The notes under the pieces are model-generated. The model was not told the DNA's origin. It saw only the letters and a program-made list of their open reading frames with translations, and searched no databases. 39,449 nt of DNA from Fimicolochytrium jonesii (Eukaryota): assembly GCF_025526975.1 (NCBI RefSeq), contig NW_026515681.1:744001-783449 (forward strand), written 5' to 3'. Position 1 is the first letter of the stretch, and each line of letters opens with the position of its first letter. The position numbers were made by a program, and so were the translations under genes. Positions 20,369 to 39,449 of the stretch are shown in pieces.

Positions 20369-21061
20369 CCGGCCCAAGGTAAAAAACGCGAGGGTCTAGG
20401 TTATATCGTCCGGGAAAATGATGGATCAGCCCCACGACTACAACAGATCCAGAGGTTGTGTTGTCTGGCGAGGAACGGGACGAAATCTTCAGGGTCTTTA
20501 TAGCTTCATCCGTAGATATATGAAGACATGCAATCCGGCGTCAAAGCGCGCGCATTTGTCGGTTTGAGAGGACATCATTTTAACACTATGCGTATCTTGA
20601 GTAAGAATGGGACGGTGTTTGCAGCAGGATGGACGTCCCCCTGCCAGAGTTCCGGTTCACTTAGATGCAGTTCCGTATCCATGGTTGCCCAGCGCGACGG
20701 AATGAAGGGACTTTCCTATTACTTTGGACGTTTTTGTATCCCGGCAACGATGTTCTTTGGTTTGTGCTTTCCTGGCGTTGCTTTTGTGGCTTTGGCATTG
20801 ACGGGATGTATTTCACATTGCCAATGAAAACTCGACAGCGCGTGTATATATATATATCGGGTTTCAGGACCGCGTCAGGACCGAGGCCCAATTACGGCAG
20901 GACCGGTCACGTGAGGCAGATATCCGCACATATGATGCCAAATATGCGCACATATTTGGCCTATTGACCTGACCTGACAGCGTAAGTTACGCACCGACTC
21001 CGCACCTAGCTGTTTGCTCCCACCTTCTATCACCCACGTTGCAGCAATTCCACTCCACACC

Positions 21062-21830
21062 ATGCACTTAGCTGGAGCAGCACCAGGTGGAGCGATGCCT
21101 TCTCAGCAAGCAGTCACAGATGCCTCCCTCCAGATGGAAATGGAGCTTTCCATCCAACAGAAGCACCAAAGGATGACAGACGTCAGACCAAAGAAGACCA
21201 CTCAGCAGTACGGCCCCAAGCAGCGGGAGTTTAGGAGCTGGTGTGACAGCAAAGGCTTCCCTATGGAGACGAGGTACACTATCACCAGCAACCAGCTACA
21301 CCTATTCCTTGAATCATAAGTAATAGGACGCCAGAGGAAGAGAGGCAAAGCTGGAACTGTTGGGCGGTCCACTGTGACTGGTTACGTTTCAGCATTGGTT
21401 GACCTTTGGCGACATCAAAGCGCTCTCAAAATCAACAGCCATCCCAATCCCAATGACGATGTTGTCAAACAGTTGGTCAGACACACCGCACTAGATACTA
21501 CACGCATCAGCAGGGAGAATTTTAACAACAGGGGAATTGGGACGCTGCTGGATGGATATTCCACTGGAGCCCAACTGGAGGGAATGAGTGCGGCATTCTG
21601 GATGAAAACCAGAGAGGCTGGCGTGCACTTGCGGAACAATGTTGCATTCCTCCTCTCACATTACGCTCTGCTCCGTGGTGAACTGGCAAGGCAGGCTGAG
21701 CTTGCGGATCTTCACTCTGTCACGCTGGAGCATGAAGGTTTTACAGACTGTAAAGCTTTGGTGCTAGTCTTACGGCAAGGGAAAACCAATCCTTTCGGGA
21801 GAATAGAAGTGTCAGCGTGCATTCGAAGCC
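21062..21830 (+). pseudogene. Crypton-type tyrosine recombinase (NDC10_II-like), with a premature stop and 3' truncation
   Basis: ORFs 21014-21319 and 21374-21856 are in the same frame, separated by TAA at 21317-21319. RPKKTTQQYGPKQREFRSWC, LHLFL, YVSALVDLW, RGIGTLLDGY, FLLSHYALLRGE..R..ELADL and GKTNPFGR..SACIR match CryptonF/Ndc10-like recombinases. Homology stops at ~21830, before the catalytic H/Y. Confidence 0.8.
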
Positions 21831-21840
21831 AGACCGCCGT

Positions 21841-21891
21841 GTGGATCAGTGCATAGCATAAACCAATGGTTTATGCTATGCACTGATCCAC
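21841..21891. repeat. Perfect inverted repeat, 25-bp arms with a 1-nt spacer
   Basis: GTGGATCAGTGCATAGCATAAACCA-A-TGGTTTATGCTATGCACTGATCCAC, read directly from the sequence. Confidence 0.97.
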
Positions 21892-21906
21892 TATACTATT
21901 ACACTG

Positions 21907-22071
21907 TGCATTAACCGTACCTGGCTCGACTTTACACTGTGCATTAACCGTAGCGGCTGCTGAAAGTGTTATGCATTAACCGTATTCCTGATGTAGGGTG
22001 TAATGTATTAACCATGTATCCTACACCTTTGGTATTATGCATTAACCGTACCAGCCTATGAGCCATTAACC
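21907..22071 (+). repeat. Regularly spaced TGCATTAACCGTA repeats (5 copies plus a partial, period 32-34 bp)
   Basis: Copies start at 21907, 21940, 21972, 22004 (variant TGTATTAACCATG) and 22038, with a partial CATTAACC at 22064. Confidence 0.9.
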
Positions 22072-22249
22072 AGGAGTCGGGTAAGACCGTGTTCTTCAGT
22101 TCCCACGACGCGCTGTCAAATTCTGTTACTTTCCCTTCACAATCTAAGCCACTGGGACATTCGGATGTCCCCTTGCGCCGCAAGAACCATGCGTTATATG
22201 AGTACGATGTGTACAATGAGTATCAATTTGACACCTCCCATACCCATCC

Positions 22250-22779
22250 TGTTATGAACGACGCGTCCATACCATGCGCTTACCTCATGACAGCATCCCA
22301 ACAGTCAGTCAATGTCAATTCCCTGTCAAAACCTGACATCTGCCAAACCTCGCAGCCGCACGCAGCCGCGCTACCCCACACCTGCCACTGCCTTCATTTC
22401 TCCACGCAGCCGCACGTAGCCACACCTCCCAACACTCGGCGCTTACAAACCCTTCTCCATACTTCCCCACGTACCCGCCCACAGCCTCAGCGTAGCCACC
22501 CCATCCCCAGTCTTCTGTTTCTATGCTTCCCCACCCTTGGCGCTTCTCTTGGCTTCCCTCTCATTCCGTACCCTTCTGCTTCCCCACGCTTCCCCAGCCT
22601 TCCCAGAAAAACATAAATAGCCGCCTCCCCTGAGCTCCCCACTTCCTGATCCCCCAGCAGATCAACACCAGTTCTTCCTAGTCTTGTTCTAGTTCTTGTT
22701 TCGGTCTGAATACCATTACCTGTCAACAACCTGCACCACAAGTCGCCTCTATTTCCATCGGCTCCGCCCGTTCATAACA
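22250..22779 (+). repeat. 5' LTR (530 bp)
   Basis: TGTTATGAACG...CGTTCATAACA 11-bp terminal inverted repeat. By eye it differs from the 3' LTR at only ~3 positions. Confidence 0.96.
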
Positions 22780-22830
22780 GTTTGATCTGCTCAACAACCC
22801 CCAGCCGCTGTACCTCCACGCCAAATCACC

Positions 22831-23757
22831 ATGTCCGACGCCCTTCCCCTCACGGCCGAAGCCTGGCAAGCCATGTGCAATGCGATTGACGAACTTCGAG
22901 CGCAGAATACCACCCTACAAGCCGAACTAGCGCAAACCCAGACCACTGCCCCTGCCACCCACGCCCCCGAACCCAAAATCAGTCTCCCAGACAAATTTGA
23001 TGGCACCCGAAGCAAGTTCCGTGGGTTCCTCAACCAGATCCGGCTCATGTTCGCCCTCCAACCCAGGCGCTACCCCAACGATCAGACCAAGATACGAACT
23101 ATTGGCACCTACCTCACTGGCACCGCCCAGGCCTGGCTGGCGCCCCTTGTCGAACAAGACCATCATTCTCTTATGAACCTGGATGATTTCATCCAGCAAA
23201 TGCAAGCAGTCTTTGGAGACAGCGACAGGTTCCGCACGTCCGAAAACAAGCTCCAGAACCTTCGACAAACCCGTGCAGCAACAGAGTATGTAGCTGAATT
23301 CCGACAGCTGCAATGCGATGTGTCATGGAATGACCAGGCATTGATTGCCACCTTCCGTCGCGGCCTCAAAGAAGACGTCAAGGACTTAATGCTCACGATG
23401 CCCCCTACCGCCTCAATCGACACCGTGATGGAACAGGCCATCCAATGTGACAACCGATTGTTTGAGCGCCGTCTAGAGCGAAGCAGGAACCGACAGCCAT
23501 ATGTGCCAGTTACCACTAGCCCCACCCTCATGAGCCCCGACAACCGCCCAGACGACCCTATGATCATTGACGCTGCTCGTCCGCGAGGACCCCTCACACC
23601 GCTAGAGCGCCAACACCGCATCACAAACAAACTTTGCCTCTACTGTGGTAAACCCGGCCACATAGCCAAACTCTGCCTGAACAAGATACGCACGGCGAAT
23701 GTCGCGGTGAAGGAACCTGCACCTATCCAGGATTTTGCCCAAGTCCAGCTGCAGTAA
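22831..23757 (+). CDS. gag: Gag (Ty3-type capsid plus CCHC zinc knuckle)
   Basis: PEPKISLPDKFDG, LRQTRAATEYVAEF, FRRGLKEDVK and CLYCGKPGHIAKLC. Confidence 0.93.
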   Translation: MSDALPLTAEAWQAMCNAIDELRAQNTTLQAELAQTQTTAPATHAPEPKISLPDKFDGTRSKFRGFLNQIRLMFALQPRRYPNDQTKIRTIGTYLTGTAQAWLAPLVEQDHHSLMNLDDFIQQMQAVFGDSDRFRTSENKLQNLRQTRAATEYVAEFRQLQCDVSWNDQALIATFRRGLKEDVKDLMLTMPPTASIDTVMEQAIQCDNRLFERRLERSRNRQPYVPVTTSPTLMSPDNRPDDPMIIDAARPRGPLTPLERQHRITNKLCLYCGKPGHIAKLCLNKIRTANVAVKEPAPIQDFAQVQLQ

Positions 23758-26700
23758 AGGCCGAGCAGCTGGGCAACACCTGTCCTGGGCCTTCTCACCA
23801 CGCAAGTACTGCCAAGGGAGAAGCCACAAAACCTTGCTCCGATCCTGGCATCTCCAGCAACACCCTTCTCCTGACCACCAACAATGTCAATCTCCTATCT
23901 GAGATACCCTCACCCATGCGGACTTTGGGCCCATCCTCACCATTCGAGTACCCTGTTACCCTGCAGATATCGGCCCAGCGAGCTCCAGTTCAGCTTTCAG
24001 CACTACTCGACACCGGTGCGATGTCGTGCTTCATCGACGAAAGTTATGCCCGCAAGCACCGCATCCCACTTGTCAAGAAGGAGGACCCCATTGCGCTTGA
24101 ACTGGTTGACGGACGTCCCAGCCATGCGGGCTCCATTACCCATCACACCCAACCTTTGGGCATGTGGGTCAACGACCATTTTGAGGAGGTTGTATTCCAT
24201 GTGACATGTTCCCCGCATGCGCCAATCATCCTGGGGCTTCCCTGGTTTGAGCTCCATGATGTGGAGCTACATTGGAAGACTCGCACTCTTTGCGTCCGCT
24301 GCCATTGCGGTTTTGGACAATACGCCTCCTGGGATGCCCTGCCAACAGAACCTAGCCCGAAGCCCTCAAGAACCCCTGAACCTCTGATCCGTATCCATCA
24401 AGACGAGATTTCAGTCTCCCTGGCCCAGAGACCCAACACACTGGACCCAGCACCCACACCGATCCACGTATCGTTTATCAGCGCCCCAGCTTTCCGTGTG
24501 GCGGCAAGGCATGACCAGGCATTCATTGCCTACGCCAATCCGACCAAGTCAGATTCCCAAGCCCTGACGACCACTCCTCCAAAAGATCCGAAGGCCATCA
24601 TTCCTGAAGAATACCAAGATTTTGCGGACGTCTTCGCCAAGAAGAACGCGGATACCCTCCCAGAGCACCGACCCTACGACTGTCCCATCGACTTAGAAGA
24701 GGGCAAACAGCCACCGTTCGGCCCAATCTATAGTCTCAGCGAGCCTGAAATGCAAGCACTCTGTGACTACCTTGAAGAGAACCTAGCTAAGGGGTTCATC
24801 AAGCACTCCAAGTCTCCCGCCGGTGCCCCAGTCCTCTTTGTCAAGAAAAATGACGGTTCCCTCCGTCTGTGCGTCGACTATCGTCGACTCAACAATATCA
24901 CCATCAAGAATCACTATCCCTTGCCCTTGATTAACAGCATCATGGATCGTCTTCGAGGGGCACGCCGGCTCACCAAGATTGACCTCCGGGGAGCCTACAA
25001 CCTTCTTCGGATCCGACCAGGGGATGAATGGAAGACAGCGTTCCGATGTCGCTACGGCCTATTCGAGTATAATGTCATGCCGTTCGGGCTCACCAATGCC
25101 CCTGGAGTATTCCAACACCTCATGAACGACATATTCCGTGACATTCTCGACGTTTTTGTTGTGGTCTACCTTGACGACATTCTGATCTTCTCAAAAAACC
25201 CAGAAGACCACCCCAACCACGTCCGAGAGGTGCTCTCACGACTCCGCCAGCACGGGCTGTATGCGAAACCGGAAAAATACGAATTCAACCGTGACTCTGT
25301 TGAGTTCCTGGGGTTTATCATCTCCCAGCAAGGCATTTCCATGGACCCAAAGAAGACGGCTGCCATTACCGAATGGGAACCCCCGACGAATGTCAAAGGC
25401 ATCCAGCGCTTCCTTGGTTTTGCCAACTTCTACCGGCGATTCATCAAAGGGTACTCTGCGATCGTTGCACCCCTGACCACGCTCACTCGCAAAGACTTGC
25501 CATTCAAATGGACCCACGCTGCACACCTAGCTTTTGAAACCCTCAAGAAAGCCTTCACCTCCGCACCTATCCTGACTCACCCCTGACCCTGACAAGCCCT
25601 TCATTGTCGAATCCGATGCCTCCGACTTTGCCCTTGGTGCCGTCCTCCTTCAACCCGATGACACAGATCAACTCCACCCCGTGGCCTTTCACTCCCGCAA
25701 ATTTACTCCTGAGGAAATCAACTATGAGATCTACGACAAGGAACTCCTGGCTATCCAAGACTCATTTGCTCAATGGCGACACCACCTCATTGGTGCCCGC
25801 CACAAGGTCATCGTTTACTGTGACCACAAGAACCTCCAGTACTTCATGACTACCGGTACCCTCAACCGCCGCCAATCCCGCTGGTCAATCTTCTTTGCTG
25901 ATTTCGACTTTGTCATCACATACCGCCCTGGTACCCAGCAACACCAAGCTGACGCCCTCTCTCGTCGCTCTGAATACGAGCTAAGGGAGGGGGAAGAAGC
26001 ATTCCGCTCCCAGGAAACCACGATCCTCACCCCTGACCATCTCCGCCTGGCCGCCACTTATCTGACCCCACTGGACTCCTCGCTCCTTGACCAAATCAAA
26101 GCTGCCCTGGCATCCGATGTGTTTGCGCAAACCATCCGGCGACAGCTTAGGGCCCCCATTGCCCAGCAATCTCAAGAAGACCAAGAACGGATAAAGCGAT
26201 TCTCCGAGGAAAATGGGGTTCTGCTGTACGACAACCTTGTCTACGTCCCCACCAACAAGCTCCGTGCTGAGATCTGCCGGGACATGCATGACACGCGTTT
26301 GGCAGGACACTACGGCATGTCAAAGACCCTGGAGCTCATCTCACGCAACTACTGGTGGCCTAGCCAGTGGCGTTTTGTCAAGTCCTACATCAGGTCCTGC
26401 GACGTATGTGCTCAAGCCAAGACCAGCAGACACAAGCCCTACGGTCTCCTCCAACCCCTGCAGGTCCCTGACCGCCCCTGGGGGTCAATTTCCATGGACT
26501 TCATCACGGATCTACCAGCCAGTGATGGGGTTGATTCTGTGCTCGTTGTCATCTGCCGGTTCACCAAGATGGCGCACTTTGTACCGTGCAGGAAAACTGC
26601 CACCGCTGAGTCAACTGCAGATCTGATCTGGCACCATGTCATCCGGCTCCATGGACTCCCCGACGATATTGTATCTGACCGTGGCCCACAGTTCAACTCC

Positions 26701-27585
26701 CACTTCTGGAAACGTCTCTTCGCTCTCCTGGGAACCAAGGTCAACCTCTCATCGGCGTTCCATCCCCAGAGCGATGGACAAACCGAGCGGACCAATCAGA
26801 TTCTTGAGCAATACCTTCGCTGCTTTTGCAACTATCAACAAGATAACTGGAAGGAACTCTTGTCTTCTGCTGAGTTCTCTTACAATAACACCATCCACTC
26901 CGCCACCCAGACAACCCCCTTCTATGCCAACTATGGGTTCCATCCTCGATTCAGTCTGGCTTCCGCGACCACAACCGAATCCCTTAATCCTGCAGCCGAA
27001 GCTCGTGCCAACCATCTCAAGGAAATCCATGAACAGCTTGCCACTGAGCTCAAGGAGGCCCAAGGACGCATGAAGCGCTTTGCCGATGCTAAGAGGGCAC
27101 CTGGCCCAGACATGAAACCCGGGGACAGTGTCTGGCTCTTACAGCGGAATCTCAAGACTCTCCGACCTTCCCAGAAACTTGATCACCGTAAGATTGGCCC
27201 CTTCACAATCACGGAGAAGATCAACTCGGTCACATATCGCCTCAAGCTTCCCCCATCCTACAAAATTCACAACGTCTTCCATGTCTCCCTTCTTGAACCA
27301 CGTTTCACCATTCCGGAGCGAACTGAGCCAGAACCCACCCCACCAGAAGAAGTCGAAGGACAGGAGGAATGGATTGTGGAAGACATTCTCGACTCCCGTA
27401 TTTGACGCACGCACCTTCAGTACCTCATCAAGTGGCAGGGTTGGCCAAGCTCGGAGAACACATGGGAGCCAGTGGAACACCTTGCCCGCTGTCAAGAGCT
27501 TGTTGCCCAGTTCCACCAAAAGTACCCCGACAAACCCCGACCAAAGCCTGCCAACATCAAAACAACATCCGGACGCCGTGGCTAA
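23730..27585 (+). pseudogene. pol: Pol (protease, RT, RNase H, integrase, chromodomain) in the -1 frame of gag; disrupted by a +1 frameshift (~25580-25583) and a TGA at 27403-27405
   Basis: ALLDTGA (protease); LCVDYR, MPFGL and YLDD (RT); ESDASDFALGAVL and YDKELLAI (RNase H); H..H..CDVC with SMDFI/SDRG/QTER (integrase); EEWIVEDILDSRI*RTHLQYLIKWQGWPSSENTWEP (chromodomain). The pol frame is open from 23652. Confidence 0.92.
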
Positions 27586-27597
27586 AGGAGGGGGTGA

Positions 27598-28127
27598 TGT
27601 TATAGACGACGCGTCCATACCATGCGCTTACCTCATGACAGCATCCCAACAGTCAGTCAATGTCAATTCCCTGTCAAAACCTGACATCTGCCAAACCTCG
27701 CAGCCGCACGCAGCCGCGCTACCCCACACCTGCCACTGCCTTCATTTCTCCACGCAGCCGCACGTAGCCACACCTCCCAACACTCGGCGCTTACAAACCC
27801 TTCTCCATACTTCCCCACGTACCCGCCCACAGCCTCAGCGTAGCCACCCCATCCCCAGTCTTCTGTTTCTATGCTTCCCCACCCTTGGCGCTTCTCTTGG
27901 CTTCCCTCTCATTCCGTACCCTTCTGCATCCCCACGCTTCCCCAGCCTTCCCAGAAAAACATAAATAGCCGCCTCCCCTGAGCTCCCCACTTCCTGATCC
28001 CCCAGCAGATCAACACCAGTTCTTCCTAGTCTTGTTCTAGTTCTTGTTTCGGTCTGAATACCATTACCTGTCAACAACCTGCACCACAAGTCGCCTCTAT
28101 TTCCATCGGCTCCGCCCGTTCATAACA
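27598..28127 (+). repeat. 3' LTR (530 bp)
   Basis: Near-identical copy of 22250-22779, preceded by the polypurine tract. Confidence 0.96.
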
Positions 28128-28560
28128 CATCCCTCACCGACTCTCACCATTTGTCTATCTCATACAAAAAGGTCCTTTCCGCCATGATTTCAACCACTTT
28201 CTCAAAACTACCCTATCTGTCGCGCGAGTACGATGAGGTATATGAATATGATGAGCATCAATTTGACACCTCCAATACCCAGCCCTCCCCGATGTACAAA
28301 TGCCCAAACAATCACAAAAAGGTCGCTTTCGCCATTATTTCAGCCACTTTCTCAAAACTACTCTATCTGTTGGGCGAGTACAATGAGTTATGTGAGTACG
28401 ATGAGTATCAATTTGACACCTCCAATACCCAGCCCTCCCCGACGCACAAATGCTTCAGAATCATAAATCGGCCCTTTTCACCGTGATTTCTCAAATCCGT
28501 ATGTTCAGAAGCGTGAGTATAATGAGTACGATGAGTAGAATGAGTATCACTTTGACATCC
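28128..28560 (+). repeat. Tandem ~140-150-bp units, each with four GAGTA-like pentamers in 9-bp phase followed by TCAATTTGACACC (first unit at ~22190-22249, before the Gypsy)
   Basis: Pentamer clusters start at 28226, 28376 and 28515, with another at 22191-22222. Confidence 0.88.
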
Positions 28561-29226
28561 CCGCTTCCTGATCCCGCACGAAAAAATGCGATATTTTGAA
28601 ATGTCATTTTTGTCGTAAATTTCGGTTTTTTCGACCCAAATTTGCAACTTTTTTCCCAGATTTCGCCGTTTTCTCCCTTTATTTTCTCACTTTTCTTTCA
28701 TATTCTCATTTCCATTTTTAAAAACTTACCCTCAATTTCATTCCGTTGCCATCCATATTGGTCCGCCTCCATCCCCATCTACATATCCTCTTCTCCTCGC
28801 GTTTCTACCTCACTCCATACATCACTTTTTAACCATTGCCTAACCTTGTGCTCCACCGATTCAACCACTTTCACTACAGTCCCTTTTCTCACCACTTTCC
28901 CCGTTCCCTCCATGTCTCAAGCCATTCCCGTCACTTTTCCAATTTTTACCCTCCATCTTTTATCGAAATGCCATCTGTAGTATTGTAGTTCTTTTTTTCA
29001 GAAAAACTATATTTTAAACAGGCACTTTTAAAAAAAAAACTCTCTCCGTCGCAAACTCTTTTCTTACCCCCCCCCTATTATACAGAGGTTTCTACCCATT
29101 TTCACCACTACAATGCTACAAATCCGCCATATACTACCTTTACACTTTTCACTTTCTCCGTGCCCGTCACATTTACACCCTGTCATTTTGATACTCATCA
29201 TACTCATTTTACTCTCCTTACTCTCC

Positions 29227-31710
29227 TTACTCATCCGCCGAGTCTTCACATACTGAATACGATTGTTGCGGAAGCATCTCATATCGGTTTAATTTGATAC
29301 CTTGGAATCCGGTAGAAACTTTCGACATCCCTTTACCGTCTACATATTTTGTAACTCGAAGACACTTGTGGTAAGTTATATCATCTTGTGATCTAGCATA
29401 GTTTTGTAACCATTTCAACATATCGTTTCGGTTAATGCGTATGTTCTTATTTTGTTGCCGTTTGGCCCACTCGATACATTCTTTGTGGATATCCTCCACT
29501 AGAATCTTGTTTTCAGGTGCATGGAGACAGCAATCATCAAAAAACGTCTGATAGATGTCGTTATTTCTCTTGTACTTGATCGTATCATCGAGAATGGATT
29601 GCGGCGTCTGGATTCCTTCTTCCTTATACAATTTGTAATATTTGATTAGAATGGACATGAAGTACGGTGCTTGAAACCCTCGGTTTCGTTTGGCTCCCTT
29701 GTCCGCAAGATAGATATGCTTGTCAGGATCGCATAATGCCGGATCTGTAACGAAAGTGCTTGTAAGCGCAATTATGTTGATCCGTCTCCACGTACCATTA
29801 TCGACTTCTAAGATGACAGGTAGATCATTCACGGACAAAAACAGCAATGCTTTGATGACAAAGTTGGAACCGTTCTCATAGAGATTTCTCGCACGGACTG
29901 GATCGTAACCGGTTAGTTTTTTAACGTTCTCCATATTGAGGGCTTTTTCTTTCTTGTTTTCTTGGATCTCAATGAAACGTTTATATTTACCATCTGCCAA
30001 CTCCGGGTTCGCTTTGTCCCCGTTAAAGTCGTTCACCAGAATGGATGAGTTCCAACTCGTTGCGTAAACATCCATACTTTCGGTCATTAATCCTACAAGG
30101 AACGATTTTCCTTGTGCGCCCGGGCCGACCATAATATTGAACTTATCGTTGTGATTACACCCCAGAGATGAAGCGAAGTTTTCACAACATATTCCCTTTT
30201 TTCCGGAATCGGTAGAACTTTGTCAATTTGACTTTTCAAACGAACCGTTGTCTCATCATGCGGATCATACTCGATATAGTCATAGCCAATTTGCAGGAGA
30301 CAGTAATCGTTTGGCTTTCCATTCCGAAACTCCAATTTGTCTAAATCATAGACCCCGTTTCGAAAGCAGACAATATTTGTACATGTCTCTAATTTACGCT
30401 CAAACTGAAGGAAATCTTCCTGTGGAAAAGTAAAGGGCCGAGGTTTTACAAACGTTGAGGTAAAACTGATATGTTTCGACACAGGACGACAGTTTCTTTA
30501 GCATACCAATTAAGCGCTCGTCGCTTTGATGACTTTTCCATTTTGTCTTTTCTTCCAATAGAGGCATCAATTCTGTCAAAAGGCGATGTTGAAAGAACTC
30601 GCCGGAATCGCAAGTCCACCGATGGGACGAAAAGTACCACCAGACCTTATTCTTGTAGTAAAAATCATCTCTCCACAAAACAATAAGAAAGCGAGCGACC
30701 GCATCATGACTTCTGTGGAGAATAGCGTTTTTGGCAAGTTGATCTAACAAAGGATCTTCAAAAAGCGGTAATCTAATGAGAGGCGCTGTCTCTTCCACAC
30801 TATCGCTCTGTGCTACAATTGGTATGACTTCAAGTCCTAACTTCTCCAGGTAACTGACCTCGTAGTTCATTGGCTTTTCTTTGATGACGACGGAGAGGCC
30901 AGTCGTTTTGTTGACATGTTGCTGCAAGTTATTAATAAGAGTCTGGTCGACCGGTAAATTCTCTTCGTTTCGAAGAACTTGAAGGCCGTCGAATACGAGA
31001 ACAGGTACTTCATAACCACTGCTCTCCAGGAACGTCTCCATTTCGCCAAGAATGATGTTTTCATGATATTGAAGAACTTTGCTGTAGAACGAACCATCCC
31101 TATTTCCGTCGTTTTTGTTTTTCTTGGTAATTGCCCAAAGTTCCTTGAATTCGGGCATTTCCTTGAAAGGTGGGAGGAAAGTTTCGTATATAAATTTGTG
31201 AATGCTTTTGATGAACGGGTGACTGGGAACTTCATATGATTTGTTGAGCGCTTCCAAAACGGACTTCTTATTCAACCCGTATTTCTGAAGGATCGTATCA
31301 CGCTTTCTAACGTACTCGGTCAAATTCTTGCATTTGGGTAATTTCAGTTTCTTGCTCAATTGTAAGGTAATGCTTGGAAATGCGTTTTCGATGTCGAGAT
31401 CAATGTACAAGTCCTCCATACTGTAACAACGTAGATTCCTCTCAAACCCTTGACCGCCGACAAGGTGGCGCGCATACAACCGGCACTTCGGAGACGTTTC
31501 GGAGTACACATACTGAACATAGAATTTGTTTGTATCGTTCAACCTCAAATCCATGTACCTCTTGATTTGATCACGAGTGGCAACGTCGAGCAATTTACAA
31601 TTCTTCAATTGAATGAGTCTGTTGACATGTGCAACTTCGTGCTTTTCTCTCTCTTTAACGGCCGTCTTTCTAAAGCGTGTGGATTCAATGATCTGTTCAG
31701 CCATTTTCAT
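29227..31710 (-). CDS. TV-Pol (PolA-like) primase/polymerase fused to D5_N and SF3 helicase, ~827 aa; split by two 1-nt frameshifts (~30427 and ~30180)
   Basis: RLYA..., DLDIENAFPSI (PolA motif A-like), LQYHENIIL, VLVFDGL (motif C-like). Then FERKL..IVCFRNGVYDL..FRNGKPNDY (D5_N), GPGAQGKS (Walker A), FIEIQE (Walker B), LSVND, DNGTWRRI, and a winged-helix-like tail ending GFQGIKL. Spans ORFs 30400-31737, 30093-30482 and 29227-30132. Confidence 0.85.
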
Positions 31711-32098
31711 TTTGTGTGTGCTTAACGTTAGGCACACAATTGTTTTCTCAGGTTTCTAAACGCATTTTGGACGATGTCACAGATGCGTCTACGCATGCAG
31801 CAATTAAAGAAATAATGGCCTAATAGTATACAATTGAACTAAGGCGAACAAATGGCATATCAATATATTGGAACGTACGAAAAATATGGAATGAAACACA
31901 AATTCATTTCAAAGACAGTGCGGGATCTAGCGAAACAGATGGGGTAAACCGAAATACCATTACTTTGATCTCAAAATGCCCCGGGGGAAAACGATCAAGA
32001 CAAATTTTACCAATAACGGTTCAGAAGATTACGATTCCAGACAACATTATGTCCACAAAGGAATCTCAAATAAGTCCAACTGAAAATGGCCCAAATCC

Positions 32099-32476
32099 GA
32101 CAATTGGAGATTTATAGTTTAGGAGGCCCGGGAAAATGGGGGTAATTCTGATGCTCACGGTACTCACGGTACTCACGGTACTCATTATACTCAAAAAAGT
32201 ATGACAAATATGTCCATTGAGAGCGACGCAAAAGCGACAATTGGAGATTTAAAGTTTAGGAGGCTCGGGAAGATGGGGGGCTATTCTGATGCTCAAGATA
32301 CTCAGAGTACTTACGGCACTCATTATACTCTAAAATTTATGACAAAGATGTCCATTGGAAACGGATCAAATCGACAATTTTAGATATATAGTTTAGGATG
32401 TCTGGGTAGACGTGGGGTATTCCTGATACTCAAGGCGCTCAAGGCGCTCTTTGCACTCACGGTAGTGACTATACTC
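32099..32476 (-). repeat. Three tandem ~137-bp units with GAGTA-like pentamers in 9-bp phase, inverted relative to the 28.2-28.5 kb units
   Basis: TACTC/TGCTC/CACTC at 32152, 32161, 32170, 32179 and 32188; again at 32290-32330 and 32427-32476. The units share CGACAATT..AGAT.TA.AGTTTAGGA. Confidence 0.88.
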
Positions 32477-33013
32477 CTGGGGAATCATTCCACCTCGTGG
32501 TGAGTTTTTACCATAATTTTTGTGGTTGTGGATTTGCTCTCCAAGGCTGCAATTCAAAATGATCCAAACTCTCCGTCTATCAAATGGATTGGAGTCTTCA
32601 CAGCACCTGCACTCTAGGCAATCTGACGAAGTCTTGTGATATTTGTTGCAAAAATTGCAAATATAAGCGTGCTTTGCAACAAATCTATGTTTGAACATCG
32701 TTGCTTGGAACTGCTTCCAAAGTTTTGCGTCGTTAAACTTCCGGGGCAAGTATTCAAGAGGCTTTTTCAATAGGAACATCTTTTTCACATGAAACAAAGT
32801 CTCGTAATGGCCGGTTTTTTTGTAGGCTTCCATCTGCTCAGACATTCTATCTACTATATTTTCCAATTTTGTTTGGATCTCGTGCGGTGAAGCCATTGTT
32901 GAAACAATGCTCTTCTGCTCACGTCTCTCATAATTTTGCTTATATGCAAAGCGCCCTTTCATCGGTTCCTCTTCTGTGAGATCATCGTATTGGTCATTTA
33001 TCATCGAACTCAA
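32393..33013 (-). CDS. PLV orphan protein with a Cys cluster (possible zinc finger), 206 aa
   Basis: ORF within the viral gene block carrying CNFCNKYH..DCLECRCC. No recognised family. Confidence 0.55.
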   Translation of the reverse strand: MSSMINDQYDDLTEEEPMKGRFAYKQNYERREQKSIVSTMASPHEIQTKLENIVDRMSEQMEAYKKTGHYETLFHVKKMFLLKKPLEYLPRKFNDAKLWKQFQATMFKHRFVAKHAYICNFCNKYHKTSSDCLECRCCEDSNPFDRRRVWIILNCSLGEQIHNHKNYGKNSPRGGMIPQEYSHYRECKERLERLEYQEYPTSTQTS

Positions 33014-33016
33014 TCG

Positions 33017-33208
33017 CTATCGAAATTTAGACTCCAACCTTTTGGTCCTGTACGTTTGTCCCCACCAACATTTACCACAAAGGACTCGTCTTGGGATAAT
33101 TGGAATAATTTCGTCACAATCTTGACACTTTCGACACTGCGAAGGAATGATGATTTGTCCATATCGGTTGAATTTCTTTGTGTACGGTTTGAAAGTCTCT
33201 TCAGGCAT
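33017..33208 (-). CDS. Small Zn-ribbon-like protein, 63 aa
   Basis: CRKCQDC...CGKC. Ends 3 bp before the next ORF on the same strand. Confidence 0.5.
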   Translation of the reverse strand: MPEETFKPYTKKFNRYGQIIIPSQCRKCQDCDEIIPIIPRRVLCGKCWWGQTYRTKRLESKFR

Positions 33209-33466
33209 TGTTTACTTTATTTTTGCAGATAACTTTATATTTTTGAACCGCGCTCGTTAGTGGAGTTCAACAATACCGCAACCGTCAAGAAATTTGACAG
33301 TTTCCTCTTTTAGTAACTCCTTATCGCGAAATAGAGTTAAGTTTGAAAACAATGGAGTGTATCCACCACTGTTGACGCACCTATAATGAATCCGGAGGTG
33401 CGCTCAATATATAAGGTCGGGCGCCATCTGTAGCACCCCCAGTCATCAATAATCCTACTATCAAAC

Positions 33467-34552
33467 ATGCCTGCCGAACGACAACAACGCCCTGGACATC
33501 CGGATGTCCAAAGGAACAACAGACCTGCCGAACGACAACAACCGCCAGGACATGCGGATGTCCAAAGGCACAACAGACGAAAGAAGCGCGCTGAATTAAG
33601 CGAAGCGGAACTTCAGAAAAAACAGAAAGAACTTCAAGAGACACATGCCCGACGTTTTGCACAACAGATTGGATTAGTTCGCCGGAAGAACGCAGCCGGT
33701 GTTGAGATTGAACCCGAGGATCCTTTCCTGGTGTGGAACGATTACCACATCGAAACGACACTGCGAGGCGCACATGTGAACATCGACCCAATCGCTCCTC
33801 GTCAAGAAGCGAGTCGAAATAATGTCCCCGACATCGAACTCGATGTGTTCAAATTATTCATTTCGTCGAAAACCTCCGGTCTCGCAGAAAATTTTGATCG
33901 ATTTGTGAATCATTACTACGTCGGCTACTACTATAAGTGGCTCGTAGATCAGCGAAGAAATAGTCCCGGCAACGAAGATGTGCAAAGCGAAGAAGCAAAA
34001 GAGCAGTTGCGAACACAAATATTCAAAGCCAAACTTGAGAAAGAGAAGGGGATTCTTGCGGGCGGGTCGTCAAAGCGACAAATCAAATCGTTCAACCGCT
34101 TATGCACGAATATGTATATCGCTATCGACGAATTTGGTTGGGGCATTCTTACATGTCCTGCCCTACTTCGCTCGTCGAAAGGGAAAGCGATTGAAAATCT
34201 CACCGAGGATATCATCAATCGAGTCTTGAAGCGTTTTGTAAAACAAGGCGCGCACCAAGTGTCAACGATGTACGATGAAGACGTCCAGAAGCATGTGGAA
34301 AACCGTTTTCGCCTTTTGGAACCGGGAAAAGACGAACGCGTTGATATAACCCCCAGACAAGTTCGTCTTAACACGGTCAAGGAGAAAATAATGGAGGCGC
34401 AGGCGAGACGAGAACAAAATTTGCAGAACAACGAGGAGCAGGAGCAGGAGCAGGAAGAGGAAAACGAAGACGTTGGAGAGCAGGAAGAGCAAAACGAAAT
34501 CGTTGGAGAGGAGGAGGAGCAAATTGTGGAGGAGGAATTGGAATATGCTTGA
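33467..34552 (+). CDS. PLV orphan protein, 361 aa, with an 18-aa N-terminal tandem repeat, a basic NLS-like patch and a Glu-rich tail
   Basis: Long ORF with PAERQQRPGHPDVQRNNR/PAERQQPPGHADVQRHNR, RRKKR and an acidic C-terminus. Confidence 0.7.
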   Translation: MPAERQQRPGHPDVQRNNRPAERQQPPGHADVQRHNRRKKRAELSEAELQKKQKELQETHARRFAQQIGLVRRKNAAGVEIEPEDPFLVWNDYHIETTLRGAHVNIDPIAPRQEASRNNVPDIELDVFKLFISSKTSGLAENFDRFVNHYYVGYYYKWLVDQRRNSPGNEDVQSEEAKEQLRTQIFKAKLEKEKGILAGGSSKRQIKSFNRLCTNMYIAIDEFGWGILTCPALLRSSKGKAIENLTEDIINRVLKRFVKQGAHQVSTMYDEDVQKHVENRFRLLEPGKDERVDITPRQVRLNTVKEKIMEAQARREQNLQNNEEQEQEQEEENEDVGEQEEQNEIVGEEEEQIVEEELEYA

Positions 34553-34633
34553 TCATGAACTTCGATGTAGCGATGTAATATCGATATATGCGATTCTTTT
34601 TTTAACTTGTTATTTGAAGAGTAAAAACGAGTA

Positions 34634-35794
34634 ATGGTTTATGCACAACCAAAGAACGACGCAGCAATGAACATTGAACTAGCAAAAAAACTTATCAACC
34701 GATATGCCGATACCGTCCATCAAAAGAATGGAACGATAGGATTGGCTGCAAGTAGCCGAAAGGTATACCTCTCTGCCTGTAATGCACTTGAAGCATACGG
34801 AATTCTTGATCCGAACGTTCTATCATCGCCAACCGATGTCATGAAAATCTTGAAAAAGAATTACCCCAAAGACGATGGAGCGAATTGTACAAAGGTGTTG
34901 TCTGCTATGTTCAAAATTATGACAAACGAGGAAAAAATAGGATTGTACGATTGGCTTTCGTCTAGCCTCTACGGTGAAACTGCAAAGAAACAATTCCTAG
35001 GTGCGTGCACAATGGACAAACTTACGCATATTGACGAAATGGGAGGTTTCTATCTCAAGATCAATAGCGATCGTTGTAAAGAGATACAAGCCCGCGATCT
35101 CGTAATGGATAGAGAATATGAAACGAAGCGCTTCATTGAAAAAGACCCTTTAATCAACGCTCTTTACGAGAAATTGGATCAACTTAAAGAAAATGCCGTC
35201 AAAGACCCTTATAAGTATGGTTTGTTGCTTGCAGCGGCTTGTTTTGTTGGTTCAGATGTTATTCGAAGAGCGGACATTGGCCAAGCAAAGTTTATGCACA
35301 TTTCCGAAGCGGATAATGTGACATTTGATACGGGAACCCATACCTTTCTGATAAAAGCATGTAATACAAATAAGGGAGACACCGATGTTCTTATTACAAT
35401 TATCGATGACATTGTTAAAAGGCACATTGATAATCTGGTTGATATTCGTAAGGCTAAAGGACAGAGTAGATTGTTTGAAAAAGCGCGCAACGCAAGTAAA
35501 CCCTATGAAGGCGGAGGTTTTGGAAGGGCTATGAAGATCGCTTGTAAACAACATATCGGAAAAGAACTTGGAGTCAATGAACTTAGAAAAATCGTAGTGA
35601 TTGACTCGATCAAATTGGATAACGGAGATCCTCGGGTTCAAAAAGAGTTTGCTAAAAAGCATGGTCATTCCTATGCAACACGACAAGTCTATTATAATCT
35701 TCACAGGGAGAAGAACGAAGGCTCATCTAATGATGATGATGCGATGGATATTGACGATCTTAATGATGATTTAAATCTAGATGACAAGTTTTGA
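34634..35794 (+). CDS. Tyrosine recombinase of PLV/virophage type, 386 aa
   Basis: IRRADIG (R), NTNKG (K), VNELRK (HxxR variant) and AKKHGHSYATRQVYY (H and Y) in the canonical order. Confidence 0.8.
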   Translation: MVYAQPKNDAAMNIELAKKLINRYADTVHQKNGTIGLAASSRKVYLSACNALEAYGILDPNVLSSPTDVMKILKKNYPKDDGANCTKVLSAMFKIMTNEEKIGLYDWLSSSLYGETAKKQFLGACTMDKLTHIDEMGGFYLKINSDRCKEIQARDLVMDREYETKRFIEKDPLINALYEKLDQLKENAVKDPYKYGLLLAAACFVGSDVIRRADIGQAKFMHISEADNVTFDTGTHTFLIKACNTNKGDTDVLITIIDDIVKRHIDNLVDIRKAKGQSRLFEKARNASKPYEGGGFGRAMKIACKQHIGKELGVNELRKIVVIDSIKLDNGDPRVQKEFAKKHGHSYATRQVYYNLHREKNEGSSNDDDAMDIDDLNDDLNLDDKF

Positions 35795-35801
35795 AAACGT
35801 A

Positions 35802-37139
35802 TTATCCATTTTGCTCTTCATACTCGGCTATGGTCTCCCGTGCATTTTTGAGATTCCCTTCATCTTCCCAAGTTGATTGGGACGCATCATAACCACTCCA
35901 TAGAACCTTGTACTGCTTTATCCTTCTGTTGCCTCTACGTACTACTCTTGAATCAAGTATTGAATCAATTTTGTATTCGTTGTTTTCATTTGGATCTGGC
36001 TGGGAAGCAATGTCTGGTAGGGTGACGGTTCCTGATGGAACTATTCGAAGATCGTTAGCCGATATTAAACCGGGAAGTCTTGTTCCATCCATTCTGTTTA
36101 ATTTGTACGATGAAACATAACCTGCATAATTACTTTGCACTTTCCCTTCAATTCTATAAGTTTGTGACGAGAAATACCCCACTTTTGCGCGTCTTTTAAT
36201 ACCACTTGGTAACGGTATTATCTTTCTTACAATATCTCCCATCTTAAATTCGTTCAAAACTGTTGATTTCACCCCTTTCAATTTCTTGTTCCGTATGCGA
36301 TCAAAGATGGCTTCATGTTCATCTTGTAAGATTTCATTTGAAGCCTTCCCTGTCGCATACGTTTTCGTGTTGTTTAAATTATCTATGAGTTTTTGAAGAT
36401 AATTTGGCCAATCCCGTTTTCCGAAACGTATCGAGGAATAGATCAGATTTTTTATATTTTTGTTAACGGATTCAATCTGACCTTGACCTTGCGGGACACC
36501 GGGTTGTCCGAACTTCCACTCCACGTTGTTCGAGTCAGCCCACTCTTGCACCAGACCTTGAAATTCCGTACCTACATCGGATGTGAAACTTACTAATACA
36601 GCGCCATCCCGTTTCATTGTTTCTAGGCACTTGACAACAGTGGCTTGATCTTGTGTCTTCATTGGCATACTGTACACCTTTTTGGTGAGAATGTCTGAAG
36701 CGTTGACCGAATACTTATATCCACCGTATGGTACGGACATTAGGTTGATACAATCAGTCTGGTAATTTCCTTCCTTTCTGGCCAAAATCGGTTTTATCGA
36801 GCCTCGCGATCCCATAACTTTTGTAGACCTCTGCCAAATCTCTTGCTTCTTGAGAAAGTCGTTAAGAAGGGTTCTTTGCGAAATCCTGCTATTGGGAAAC
36901 GCTTTTCTATATGCATACCACAATTTGTCTTGTCCTAGAAAATTTTGATTCTGATAGTAAAACTTGGTGAGGTTCCGGAGATCCTCCGGAGTGATGGGGT
37001 CATATCTGAGAGATGAAGGGCCTTTGTTGTCGGAGTCCATCTTTCGTTTATCAATTGACCACAAATTAATGTTGTGGTCAATTTTTTTTTCATTGTTCGG
37101 TAAAAATTGAGAAAAATACCTGAATCTTTTCTCGGGCAT
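35802..37139 (-). CDS. Polinton-type retroviral-like (rve) DDE integrase with a C-terminal chromodomain, 445 aa
   Basis: LTKFYYQ..FLGQDKLW N-terminus; YQTD, FTSDVGTEF and QGQIESVNKNIK give the D-D-E triad; chromodomain YKIDSILDSR...YKVLWSGYDASQSTWEDEGNL. Confidence 0.9.
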   Translation of the reverse strand: MPEKRFRYFSQFLPNNEKKIDHNINLWSIDKRKMDSDNKGPSSLRYDPITPEDLRNLTKFYYQNQNFLGQDKLWYAYRKAFPNSRISQRTLLNDFLKKQEIWQRSTKVMGSRGSIKPILARKEGNYQTDCINLMSVPYGGYKYSVNASDILTKKVYSMPMKTQDQATVVKCLETMKRDGAVLVSFTSDVGTEFQGLVQEWADSNNVEWKFGQPGVPQGQGQIESVNKNIKNLIYSSIRFGKRDWPNYLQKLIDNLNNTKTYATGKASNEILQDEHEAIFDRIRNKKLKGVKSTVLNEFKMGDIVRKIIPLPSGIKRRAKVGYFSSQTYRIEGKVQSNYAGYVSSYKLNRMDGTRLPGLISANDLRIVPSGTVTLPDIASQPDPNENNEYKIDSILDSRVVRRGNRRIKQYKVLWSGYDASQSTWEDEGNLKNARETIAEYEEQNG

Positions 37140-37318
37140 GAGCGCTCAGTCAAAAGGTCATACTATATAGGCAAGATTCGAAAAGCCTGAAAAGCACAAC
37201 CCAAATATAGTAAAATGGCACCAATTTGTTCAGGAGTTTGGTCGCGCAGAAGATGTCTTTGTTGCTCAACTCGGAGAATAGTTTTTCGTCTTATTCAGGA
37301 CGGAAATCTTGGAAATCT

Positions 37319-37528
37319 TCAAGCGGTCTTTTTCCGCCTAGTGACTTTAGGTTTTACCTGGTCACCTAAAATCTTCTGTACCAATGCTTCTGCCATTTCC
37401 TTTTGTAAGGATTCGAGTATTTCTTTTCTGGAGTTTTCGTCAACGTCTAACCAAAGGCGATCTTGGGAAAGCGCTGCTAAAACCGTGTCATACGTTTCCT
37501 TTGTTACAGTATCTGGTATAAAGAACAT
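37319..37528 (-). CDS. Small hypothetical PLV protein, 69 aa
   Basis: ORF fills the gap between the ATPase and the integrase on the same strand, with an AAATG start context. Confidence 0.45.
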   Translation of the reverse strand: MFFIPDTVTKETYDTVLAALSQDRLWLDVDENSRKEILESLQKEMAEALVQKILGDQVKPKVTRRKKTA

Positions 37529-37549
37529 TTCTATTCAAAAACCAACAAT

Positions 37550-38260
37550 TTAAAAAAAGTCGTGAAACCCGTCTTTGTCGCAATACCGGTACATCGTTCG
37601 CGCATCATCCGCTGCCAAATTCACATATGCAAACGAATACGGCTCCTTTGTGCTTTCCGTAAGATACGATAGAACTTCTTTTTTTGTTTTGAACGCACTT
37701 GTCAATAATTTCGCCAAAGATTCCATATCCTCCGAATTATTCTTAAAGATTATAAACTCTGTTGTGTTGTTCTTCATCTTTCGAGTAAGTTGACCGCTCA
37801 CGGATTGGATACACACCATGGTGGAGCAGAGAAAGTGGCGTCCTTTCGTATAGAGTTTAGACAACTCTTTGTTTAACTCCTTCCCTTGAGCATTGTCTCC
37901 AGCGTCGTCAATATACAACAGCAAGGACTTTCCGCTTTCCGCCAGCAACTTTTGATCTTCCAAAATCTCGGCTATCATGGCATTATTCACTTCATCTGTG
38001 AAAAAGATGTTCCTGTGCTTAGTGCTCTGTGCCAATTGTTTTATGCTCTTATCGTTCAAGACTGTATCTGACATTATTATCACTCTGTCAAACACTTTTG
38101 CATAAACATCTTCGATCAATCCACATACAAGAGCGGATTTCCCACTTTTGCGCGGTGCGATAAGTGTACTACATATGGGAGGAGCCTGAATGTTGATCGG
38201 AATGATTTTGTTTCGAACCTCGTTTTTCTTCGGAAAGATTGGTTTTGGTTTGTAAGACAT
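37550..38260 (-). CDS. A32-like FtsK/HerA genome-packaging ATPase, 236 aa
   Basis: IAPRKSGKS (Walker A), LLYIDD (Walker B), KGRH (Arg finger) and MVCIQS. Size typical of PLV, Polinton and virophage ATPases. Confidence 0.9.
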   Translation of the reverse strand: MSYKPKPIFPKKNEVRNKIIPINIQAPPICSTLIAPRKSGKSALVCGLIEDVYAKVFDRVIIMSDTVLNDKSIKQLAQSTKHRNIFFTDEVNNAMIAEILEDQKLLAESGKSLLLYIDDAGDNAQGKELNKELSKLYTKGRHFLCSTMVCIQSVSGQLTRKMKNNTTEFIIFKNNSEDMESLAKLLTSAFKTKKEVLSYLTESTKEPYSFAYVNLAADDARTMYRYCDKDGFHDFF

Positions 38261-38283
38261 TAATTCTCTTACCTTATTACTAA

Positions 38284-39003
38284 ATGTATTCAGAAATTTT
38301 ATACTCTAGCGTCTCCCAACGTACATACAACATCCAACCTAGACGGATCGAGGCTTTCAAAATACTGAGCCTTTCTTTTCTTCAAGATTGGGATCTGGTT
38401 GAAAATAACGTGAATGATACTATCGCATTTGCCCAACAAGGGTCTGATACCATCTTGTACGCAAAGATCCCAAATGGTAACTACTCGATCGTTGACTTCC
38501 CAAACGCTGTTTCCAGCGCTATGAATAGCGCCGCTGGCTCTAATGTATACTCTGCTACATTCGATGGTGTTAGACGCAAGTTAACGGTAAATAGCAACTC
38601 TGTTCCTTTCAAGATACTTCCTGGCAATCGTGGGTCGACAGCCTATATTCTTATGGGAATGTCCCGTCGAGCGGATATTGGCTTTGGTTCCTCTCACGAG
38701 ATGAAGAATCCTGTCAATTTAAGCGGTTCATATCCTGTCATTTTGACTTCCAACATTCAATGCAAAGGCACCCAGTATCTTGTTGATTATAACGACAGCG
38801 CTCAATCAATCTGTTGCAGTATCGTACCTGATAGTTTTGGGGACATTGTACAATATGAAAATTCAGGCGAGTTTCTTCCCGTTGGACAGACCATATCTCA
38901 AGTCGAGTTTCATCTTATCAATTCCCTTACCGGAACAGAAGTATCATTGAATTCTCCTTTAAGTGTCAGATTCGCCATTCTAGACGATGTAGACGATCTC
39001 TGA
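38284..39003 (+). CDS. Probable minor capsid protein (penton, single jelly-roll), 239 aa
   Basis: Beta-rich. NNVNDTIAF..IPNGNYS insertion domain and C-terminal ISQVEFHLINSLTGTEVSLNSPLSVRF resemble PLV pentons. Adjacent to the packaging ATPase. Confidence 0.72.
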   Translation: MYSEILYSSVSQRTYNIQPRRIEAFKILSLSFLQDWDLVENNVNDTIAFAQQGSDTILYAKIPNGNYSIVDFPNAVSSAMNSAAGSNVYSATFDGVRRKLTVNSNSVPFKILPGNRGSTAYILMGMSRRADIGFGSSHEMKNPVNLSGSYPVILTSNIQCKGTQYLVDYNDSAQSICCSIVPDSFGDIVQYENSGEFLPVGQTISQVEFHLINSLTGTEVSLNSPLSVRFAILDDVDDL

Positions 39004-39057
39004 CCGCACCTATGTTCCTCTTAAATATTTTGTTTTCTTTATAAAAACTCGTGTTAA

Positions 39058-39449
39058 ATGAGCGAAGATCCAAATCATTCGAGTGCCTCTGCCGATTCTC
39101 CTGCCAATACTGACACGGTACAAGAATCTGTACAAGATTCAATACCGGAGATTCGATCACCTTCACCAAAGCCAGAGTTAAAACCTAAAAAGCAAAGAAC
39201 ACCCGCACAGGAAGCGGCTCTGAAGAAAGCCGTTGCCACACGGAAAAAAAACTTGCAAGAATTGTCCGCTATGAAGAAAAAGGAAAGCGAAGATAGAAAA
39301 ATCCAAGAAGCGAAACAACTTCTTGAAAAGGAGAAACTTGCAAAGAAATTGGTGAAAGAGGAAAAGGCTAAATCAAAGCCACAAACATCACAAACCGCTA
39401 AACGGGCACGTTCAATCAAAGTTCCACATAATGAACCGACTGCAATTCG
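39058..39449 (+). CDS. Lys/Glu-rich coiled-coil PLV protein, partial (runs off the window)
   Basis: ATG in TAAATG context. MSEDPNHSS...KPKKQRTPAQEAALKKAVATRKKNLQE... stays open to the window end. Confidence 0.65.
   Translation, partial: MSEDPNHSSASADSPANTDTVQESVQDSIPEIRSPSPKPELKPKKQRTPAQEAALKKAVATRKKNLQELSAMKKKESEDRKIQEAKQLLEKEKLAKKLVKEEKAKSKPQTSQTAKRARSIKVPHNEPTAI

Follow-up and report, generated by a model that had tools for sequence, protein, structure and literature searches.

The window analysed here, a stretch of 39,449 nucleotides, carries a block of virus-type genes flanked by eukaryote-type genes. The GC content steps from 0.565 over positions 1-20900 to 0.414 over 28128-39449, and long unspliced ORFs make up 83% of 29227-39449. 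The following features were assigned along the locus:

20978..21856, + strand: truncated host-side gene, presumed Crypton-like (NDC10 domain II; PF16787, E 3.4e-7)
21840..39449: left 17.6 kb of a very probable integrated Polinton-like virus (PLV), as delimited in the original prediction and ending at the window edge
21841..21891, unstranded: perfect 51-bp palindrome (25-nt arms, 1-nt loop), computed
21899..22050, + strand: subterminal 13-mer in four exact copies, found by motif search
22183..22249, + strand: incomplete unit of the viral 150-bp repeat on the left side of the retrotransposon, found by sequence comparison
22250..28127, + strand: Ty3/Gypsy LTR retrotransposon of 5.9 kb (LTRs 22250-22779 and 27598-28127; 5-bp target duplication)
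28164..28562, unstranded: non-coding 150-bp tandem array with 9-bp sub-repeats
29227..31710, - strand: TV-Pol (family A-like primase-polymerase) fused to a D5/SF3 helicase, in three frame pieces
32098..32434, unstranded: 137-bp tandem array upstream of TV-Pol, holding the 9-bp motif of the 28164..28562 array in inverted form
32393..33004, - strand: Cys-rich ORF of 203 aa without a family, also in a near-identical relative (P0019)
33467..34552, + strand: charged ORF of 361 aa without a convincing family; an identical protein is on record
34634..35794, + strand: likely tyrosine recombinase (R212, K247, R318, H345, Y354)
35802..37139, - strand: rve (DDE) integrase with a C-terminal chromodomain (D129, D188 and E223 present)
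37550..38260, - strand: A32/FtsK-type packaging ATPase (Walker A/B and GRH motifs)
38284..39003, + strand: penton, by fold (model pLDDT 93.8)
39058..39449, + strand: charged ORF running past the window edge, whose homologue follows the penton gene in chytrid relatives

At the left junction, the PF16787 match in the host-side gene spans profile positions 4-95 (of 317) and stops at residue 171 of 178, directly before the palindrome. This NDC10-domain gene, presumably Crypton-like, breaks off precisely at the left junction with the virus. The palindrome has an arm of 25 nt, compared with at most 10 nt in 10 shuffled versions of the window and 10 nt for the second-best palindrome in the window itself; a further test of the palindrome gave z -6.1. 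We infer that it represents the left terminus of the virus. The subterminal 13-mer gave five matches with at most two mismatches, the four exact ones among them, and none of 100 shuffles reached five.

The Ty3/Gypsy element inserted into a viral repeat within this left end. Its GC content is host-like (0.546), and its two LTRs differ by 3 mismatches over 530 bp. Its pol is shifted in frame once, near 25585, and interrupted by an in-frame stop at 27403-27405. The repeat piece on its left (22183..22249) is identical to the units at 28253 and 28403 in 29 and 30 of 32 bases, but the flank on its right matches the repeat unit in only 12-13 of 30 bases, which speaks against this reading. Because a viral repeat is interrupted by a retrotransposon that has host-like GC and a 5-bp target duplication, the virus appears to be chromosomally integrated. 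Integration is also supported by the product of the 361-aa ORF, which has been recorded from a 783-kb contig. The AT-rich block that had been described for the whole region held for 28128-39449, whereas 22250-28127 turned out to be the retrotransposon.

The gene at 29227-31710 had been read as a PolA-like primase fused to a D5 helicase, and this identity was confirmed, although two frame changes that compensate each other, one near 30430 and one near 30180, split the gene, with 8 internal stops in the main frame. An unbroken 816-aa relative (P0159) aligned from end to end at 51%, and the polymerase-helicase fusion is uninterrupted there. A relative named Fimicolochytrium jonesii was identical in 796 of 837 residues (gap-free columns), and its reading frame is intact across the second break. 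The P0157 search returned two loci in which the helicase part alone matched, at 25-27% identity, and which were set aside. Judged from its reading frames, this copy as assembled would be unable to make the full-length TV-Pol/helicase. Two explanations are about equally probable, namely a decaying copy that needs a sibling in trans, or assembly errors behind the single-base shifts.

The polymerase structure model, built from 6 sequences, is of low confidence (mean pLDDT 55.8). A fold search against BFVD with the polymerase gave 16 matches at E<=0.001, and those with names included the Zamilon DNA replication protein (E 2.9e-8) and the Qinghai Lake virophage helicase/primase/polymerase (E 5.8e-7). 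Comparison of the model with the PDB by Foldseek gave no match at E<=0.001, and sequence searches of the polymerase against the PDB and phage records returned none either. For residues 92-283, family A polymerases matched best, with Pol nu at Z 6.8 (rmsd 4.4, 181 aligned), a Z that can reflect a common arrangement. The palm aspartates by which TV-Pol was defined (Iyer 2008) are present as D104-x-D106 and D241; the D241 motif is kept in all 6 aligned rows and, of the 4 rows covering the D104-x-D106 motif, 3 have it intact. R77, in the predicted strand 77-83, is kept in relatives and corresponds, by position only, to the arginine of the TV-Pol pre-palm beta-hairpin. The fingers motif RxxxK was not found in its strict form: the sole RxxxK in the ORF lies at 46, upstream of the palm, and K148 has no arginine four residues earlier. 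On these residues, strict TV-Pol membership would be weakened, with the likeness to TV-Pol left untouched.

The jelly-roll fold expected for the penton-like gene at 38284-39003 was borne out, as its model matched the mavirus penton (E 1.4e-10) and Sputnik chain 3j26_N (E 2.1e-9), and a profile search matched PBCV-1 P1v1 (E 2e-14). The A32 assignment of the ATPase likewise stood on its Walker A/B and GRH motifs and on PF04665 (Pox_A32), which is present in 11 of the 14 homologues, including relatives at 75% and 69% identity; the window ATPase itself fell below a match to this family, and its profile found nothing among PDB sequences. All eight named proteins among the 14 matches are chytrid proteins or belong to chytrid MELD viruses. 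In the ATPase tree the nearest rows include MELD virus 2, with unsettled forks around the window row; the outgroup formed a very long branch and the root was disregarded. In three relatives (P0021, P0022 and P0025), penton and the homologue of the terminal ORF at 39058..39449 are joined in a single gene model (E 2e-10 to 1e-6).

The rve integrase was verified by Pfam matches to rve (E 6.6e-8) and Chromo (E 3e-13), and it is the gene expected of a Polinton/Maverick. An origin of this gene as a Gypsy fragment was rejected, as it is weakly similar to the Gypsy integrase and has a virus-like GC3 of 0.41. The residues of the neighbouring recombinase were read against the R-K-HxxR-H-Y scheme, which we assume to apply, and asparagine stands at the first His position. 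Language-model (Atlas) leads pointed to Preplasmiviricota clusters at 0.96-0.97, one of them with PF00589 on 16% of its members, and searches of Pfam, PDB and phage records returned no match. The call of a tyrosine recombinase is hence backed by catalytic motifs and the language-model lead and lacks a profile match. A role of the putative recombinase as a protelomerase was considered as a possibility.

The window covers the left viral end alone, and no right end, terminal inverted repeat or target duplication of the virus was seen in it. In its five non-coding gaps, the longest stretches without a stop run to 75-126 codons, and no candidate for the major capsid protein (MCP), which belongs to the minimal morphogenetic module of PLVs (Yutin 2015), was found in the window. 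Neither a maturation protease nor a virophage-type MCP was found there, and no protein-primed PolB was found among the window ORFs, which have a TV-Pol/SF3 gene instead. Searches for tRNAs and Rfam families gave no matches. No confirmed related locus came from IMG/VR (queried with the ATPase, its alignment, the recombinase, the integrase and the 21-mer repeat), JGI metagenomes had no match for the penton or the palindrome arm, and no sequencing runs were listed for 33400-39449, which is uninformative on expression or copy number.

We conclude with high confidence that the window contains the left 17.6 kb of a PLV that carries a penton, an ATPase, an rve integrase and TV-Pol/SF3 and is integrated in a chromosome probably belonging to a chytrid. 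The virus was likely inserted by the rve integrase and would replicate without a protein primer. The fold matches of penton and polymerase support the endogenous PLV with TV-Pol/SF3 replication in fungal DNA that had been proposed. Most genes fit its description as largely intact; the replication gene in its assembled form does not, and a retrotransposon lies in the left end. The major capsid gene, a predicted double jelly-roll, probably lies to the right of the window.

A capsid-less or truncated relic that kept penton and ATPase, lost its major capsid gene and moves, if at all, as a transposon would fit the window gaps, in which no capsid candidate was found, as well as the broken replication gene and the inserted retrotransposon with its own stop and frameshift. 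We consider this quite unlikely, as the window stops within the very ORF that follows the penton gene in relatives, the frames of penton, ATPase, integrase and recombinase are open, and the nearest ATPase comes from a 14,337-base record named as a virus. An endogenous virophage is very unlikely, even though some virophages typically have TV-Pol/SF3, paired integrases and terminal palindromes, virophage proteins are the best fold matches of both penton and polymerase, and rve together with a tyrosine recombinase has been reported in Halocafeteria virophages (not its PLVs) and in mid-GC EMALEs. The ATPase is 58-75% identical to those of viruses named MELD viruses, and a 2026 preprint treats chytrid A32 ATPases under Aquintoviruses/PLVs. 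Furthermore, fold matches at 7-20% identity mirror the contents of the library, and replication modules are swapped freely between virophages and PLVs.

Perfect palindromes can arise as assembly artefacts, which would suit a chimera of fungal DNA joined to a free or contaminating virus. Such a join is extremely unlikely given the host-type LTR element with its target duplication within viral repeats, the host-side gene interrupted precisely at the junction, and homologues on chytrid contigs of 0.3-3 Mb.

For the integrated PLV, the rve-chromodomain integrase would insert the linear viral genome, with the chromodomain possibly steering insertion to repeat-rich chromatin. After excision, the SF3 helicase would unwind the DNA, TV-Pol would prime and extend it, and the ATPase would pack it into a double jelly-roll capsid. 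The 51-bp palindrome may fold into a terminal hairpin and thereby solve end replication, to which we give slightly less than an even chance; the alternative would be a circular intermediate via the tyrosine recombinase. Hairpin-primed replication is suggested by the combination of palindrome, TV-Pol and two integrases in a fungal element. PolA occurs mostly with tyrosine recombinases and DDE integrases mostly with pPolB according to a preprint, so the acting integrase here could be either. A bolder and doubtful possibility is a fungal PLV with the full virophage module, in which, besides hairpin ends and TV-Pol/SF3, the rve integrase would serve integration into the host chromosome and the tyrosine recombinase would act on the genomes of giant viruses. 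Such a PLV would live as a resident hyperparasite of Mycodnaviridae, and a single culturable chytrid would carry several copies of it that are nearly identical.

Documentation of DNA viruses in fungi is sparse, and a large protist survey of such elements excluded fungi. In this chytrid copy the point where virus meets host is defined exactly, and a palindromic terminus and a TV-Pol replicase come with it. A fungus could thus be used to ask how the ends of a PLV genome are copied when there is no protein primer, and whether the PLVs of chytrids rely on Mycodnaviridae, the giant viruses recently described from zoosporic fungi. The remaining interest lies in palindrome, TV-Pol and two integrases occurring together in a fungal element.

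Among known systems, Powellomyces chytrid fungus MELD viruses 2 and 3 (DAC81645.1, DAC81661.1; PMC8502044) have ATPases 75% and 58% identical to that of the window and, like it, Powellomycetaceae hosts. With these as the nearest named ATPases and with chytrid PLVs already published, the suggestion of a possibly undescribed fungal PLV lineage was given up. The replicases of the six Powellomyces viruses are either PolB or of varied non-PolB types, and a figure legend names PolA, S3H and YRec (Starrett et al. 2021, PMC8502044). MELD viruses 2 and 3 were assembled from reads, whereas the window copy is seen at its host junction. PLVs of the S. punctatus (SP) group (Bellas and Sommaruga 2021, PMC7805220) are likewise integrated in a Spizellomycetales chytrid, and lake PLV proteins match SPPG_00918-00930, which include pPolB, MCP and the ATPase SPPG_00930 (PMC7805220). 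The window ATPase matches SPPG_08456 (69%) rather than SPPG_00930, and SP-group membership was dropped, as the ATPase points to this different S. punctatus locus. A 2026 preprint distinguishes two chytrid ATPase groups, and the window ATPase likely belongs to the other one, not to that of SPPG_00930. The TV-Pol-SF3 of Sputnik/Zamilon (Iyer et al. 2008, PMC2579912) and PgVV-like PLVs (Yutin 2015, PMC4642659) shows the same palm-D5 fusion with no exonuclease domain seen (Zamilon fold E 3e-8). Identity to the Sputnik/Zamilon protein is only ~18%, and the window copy lacks the strict RxxxK and is frameshifted.

The hosts of the Halocafeteria elements and EMALEs are stramenopiles. Endogenous virophages and PLV subtype 4 of Halocafeteria seosinensis have terminal palindromes of 52 nt, compared with 51 nt here, and share non-pPolB replication and rve integrases with our element (bioRxiv 10.64898/2026.07.28.741278). 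Halocafeteria virophages and mid-GC EMALEs (PMC8547959) also resemble it in having rve plus tyrosine recombinase and nested retrotransposons. In Halocafeteria, virophages had the two-integrase set and PLVs did not (bioRxiv 10.64898/2026.07.28.741278). Each of the three traits, TV-Pol/SF3, paired integrases and terminal palindromes, has precedents in PLVs or virophages, and the element is a further example within the already described chytrid viruses rather than a new virus group.

The element is a real provirus, young-looking and partly damaged, and its lineage is that of the already described chytrid PLV/MELD viruses. GC content steps from 0.565 (1-20900) to 0.414 (28128-39449), and long unspliced ORFs make up 83% of the low-GC part (29227-39449). 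The viral genes named in the original prediction (A32 ATPase, penton-like gene, polymerase-D5 helicase, tyrosine recombinase and rve integrase) were correct, the recombinase as a likely identification, and its span of 21840-39449 does contain them, but that span is not viral throughout, as 5.9 kb of it is a Ty3/Gypsy element. The main features are:

20978-21856 (+), NDC10-domain gene, cut by the virus; the match ends at profile position 95 of 317
22250-28127 (+), Ty3/Gypsy element with gag, protease, RT, RNase H and integrase
29227-31710 (-), replication gene, TV-Pol fused to D5/SF3 helicase
34634-35794 (+), likely tyrosine recombinase with a recombinase-like residue set
35802-37139 (-), rve integrase with D129, D188, E223 and a chromodomain
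37550-38260 (-), A32/FtsK-type packaging ATPase, with relatives carrying Pox_A32
38284-39003 (+), penton, by fold match and profile matches

Eukaryote-type genes in several pieces occupy the left half; they encode a ferric reductase, a glycosyltransferase and an iron-containing redox enzyme. The redox enzyme (5886-9193, minus strand; Haem_oxygenas_2, E 1e-18), whose family is known mostly from bacteria, is split over several ORF pieces. A lone C-terminal D5/SF3 helicase fragment also lies within this host-like DNA (16734-17051, plus strand; DUF5906 match, GC3 0.66); it matches P0159, an unbroken 816-aa ENA relative of the TV-Pol/helicase protein, at 29% (E 1e-9) and is likely a separate, older viral relic.

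At the left junction, the match of the NDC10-domain gene, which we take to be Crypton-like, ends directly before a perfect 51-bp palindrome (21841-21891) with a 25-nt arm, against 10 nt for the longest arm in 10 shuffles. The rest of this gene is predicted to lie at the right viral junction. Beyond the palindrome are four exact 13-mers and then, left of Gypsy, a partial copy of the viral 150-bp repeat, identical at 29-30 of 32 bases to the units at 28253 and 28403, while the right-hand Gypsy flank matches a repeat unit at just 12-13 of 30 bases. The partial copy indicates that viral DNA begins left of Gypsy and that Gypsy jumped into the virus; no other observation argues as strongly that the virus truly resides in the host genome. 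The Gypsy element is young; its 530-bp LTRs differ by 3 mismatches, it is flanked by a 5-bp target duplication, and it carries one frameshift and one in-frame stop, with a chromodomain-like tail beyond the stop. Three mobile elements (Crypton-like, virus and Gypsy) are nested at the left end. A search covering few subscription journals found no published account of palindromic ends in any fungal PLV.

P0159 aligns from 31704 to 29275 at 51%, and the replication gene corresponds to it in three pieces (residues 1-434, 406-512 and 513-814), the outer two lying in a common frame that has 8 stops in between. Short base runs occur at or close to both breaks, and comparable breaks in other endogenous PLVs are often assembly errors according to excerpts of PMC10120064; real decay is also possible, given the frameshift and in-frame stop in Gypsy. 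A relative named Fimicolochytrium jonesii, identical at 796 of 837 gap-free columns, reads in frame across the second break, and so close a protein sequence points to sibling copies of the element and to a host in the Powellomycetaceae. A 9-bp motif is repeated at 28393-28547, 29192-29232 and 32161-32430, in non-coding arrays that flank the replication gene in opposite orientations; as a guess, these could be origin or binding sites, and they possibly mark a swappable replication cassette.

The C-terminal part of the protein is a D5/SF3 helicase. No Pfam or PHROG family was found for the N-terminal polymerase part, whose model is weak (pLDDT 55.8). Foldseek gave no PDB match to this model at E<=0.001, the top-ranked entries being family A polymerases, and VIA-align with Pol nu gave Z 6.8 and rmsd 4.4 over 181 aligned residues. 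In the viral library BFVD, 16 matches at E<=0.001 included the Zamilon replication protein and a Qinghai Lake virophage helicase/primase/polymerase. Of the TV-Pol features in the available text of Iyer 2008 (PMC2579912), the gene shows both aspartate motifs, the arginine of the hairpin and the fusion to D5, whereas the RxxxK motif was not found in strict form.

The penton-like gene was borne out by its model (pLDDT 93.8), whose fold matches include adenovirus penton bases as well as the mavirus penton (E 1.4e-10) and a Sputnik chain (E 2.1e-9). Its ORF has 135 relatives at E<=0.001, 66 of which were aligned with it, and the penton profile matches PBCV-1 P1v1 and an EhV-201 penton. No major capsid candidate was found within the window, where the longest stop-free stretch in any gap is 126 codons and the ORFs left unassigned, in contrast to the penton, are rich in charged residues. 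Three chytrid gene models likewise have the last ORF after the penton, so the window ends within a conserved block. A 71-codon frame between ATPase and integrase (37319-37534, minus strand) has no convincing family, and a 361-aa ORF carries coding tandem repeats of 54 bp and 30 bp at its two ends (33470-33578 and 34448-34523, plus strand). ORF 34634-35794 groups with Preplasmiviricota proteins (Atlas), one cluster having PF00589 on 16% of members; no profile search of it confirmed a recombinase family.

Most likely, this is a linear virus whose genome the rve integrase would insert, TV-Pol and the SF3 helicase would copy and the A32-type ATPase would package. The terminal palindrome might prime replication as a hairpin, to which we give a little less than an even chance. 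Halocafeteria elements, in the portion of a preprint consulted (10.64898/2026.07.28.741278), have terminal palindromes of 52 nt next to target duplications, and these elements combine rve integrases with non-pPolB replication; hairpin priming is proposed there, with accidental annealing as the alternative. The likely tyrosine recombinase might insert the element into a giant virus, as proposed in the same preprint and for EMALEs (PMC8547959, in part). Alternatively, it might make a circular intermediate (passages of PMC4642659). Giant viruses of zoosporic fungi were recently described (PMC13533422, abridged), and any dependence of the element on them is hypothetical. PolA is associated mostly with tyrosine recombinases in sections of another preprint (10.64898/2026.10.13.758929).

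Of 447 ATPase candidates, 14 were relatives, 11 with Pox_A32, and all 8 named ones are chytrid proteins. Identity is 75% to the FtsK of Powellomyces chytrid fungus MELD virus 2, 58% to that of virus 3 and 69% to Spizellomyces punctatus SPPG_08456; the proposed undescribed fungal PLV lineage thus gives way to a described one. In Starrett 2021 (PMC8502044, in extracts) six Powellomyces MELD viruses are described, whose replicases are PolB or of varied non-PolB types; NCBI taxonomy lists all of these viruses, and the newness of the gene combination here hinges directly on their gene maps. Parts of a 2026 preprint place chytrid ATPases in two places and describe replication modules as often swapped, TV-Pol included (further literature, also in part: PMC11071308, 10.1101/2023.10.16.562556). 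A PLV group of S. punctatus was described by Bellas 2021 (PMC7805220); judging from the sections available, the ATPase of that group seems to be encoded at another locus than the SPPG_08456 matched here.
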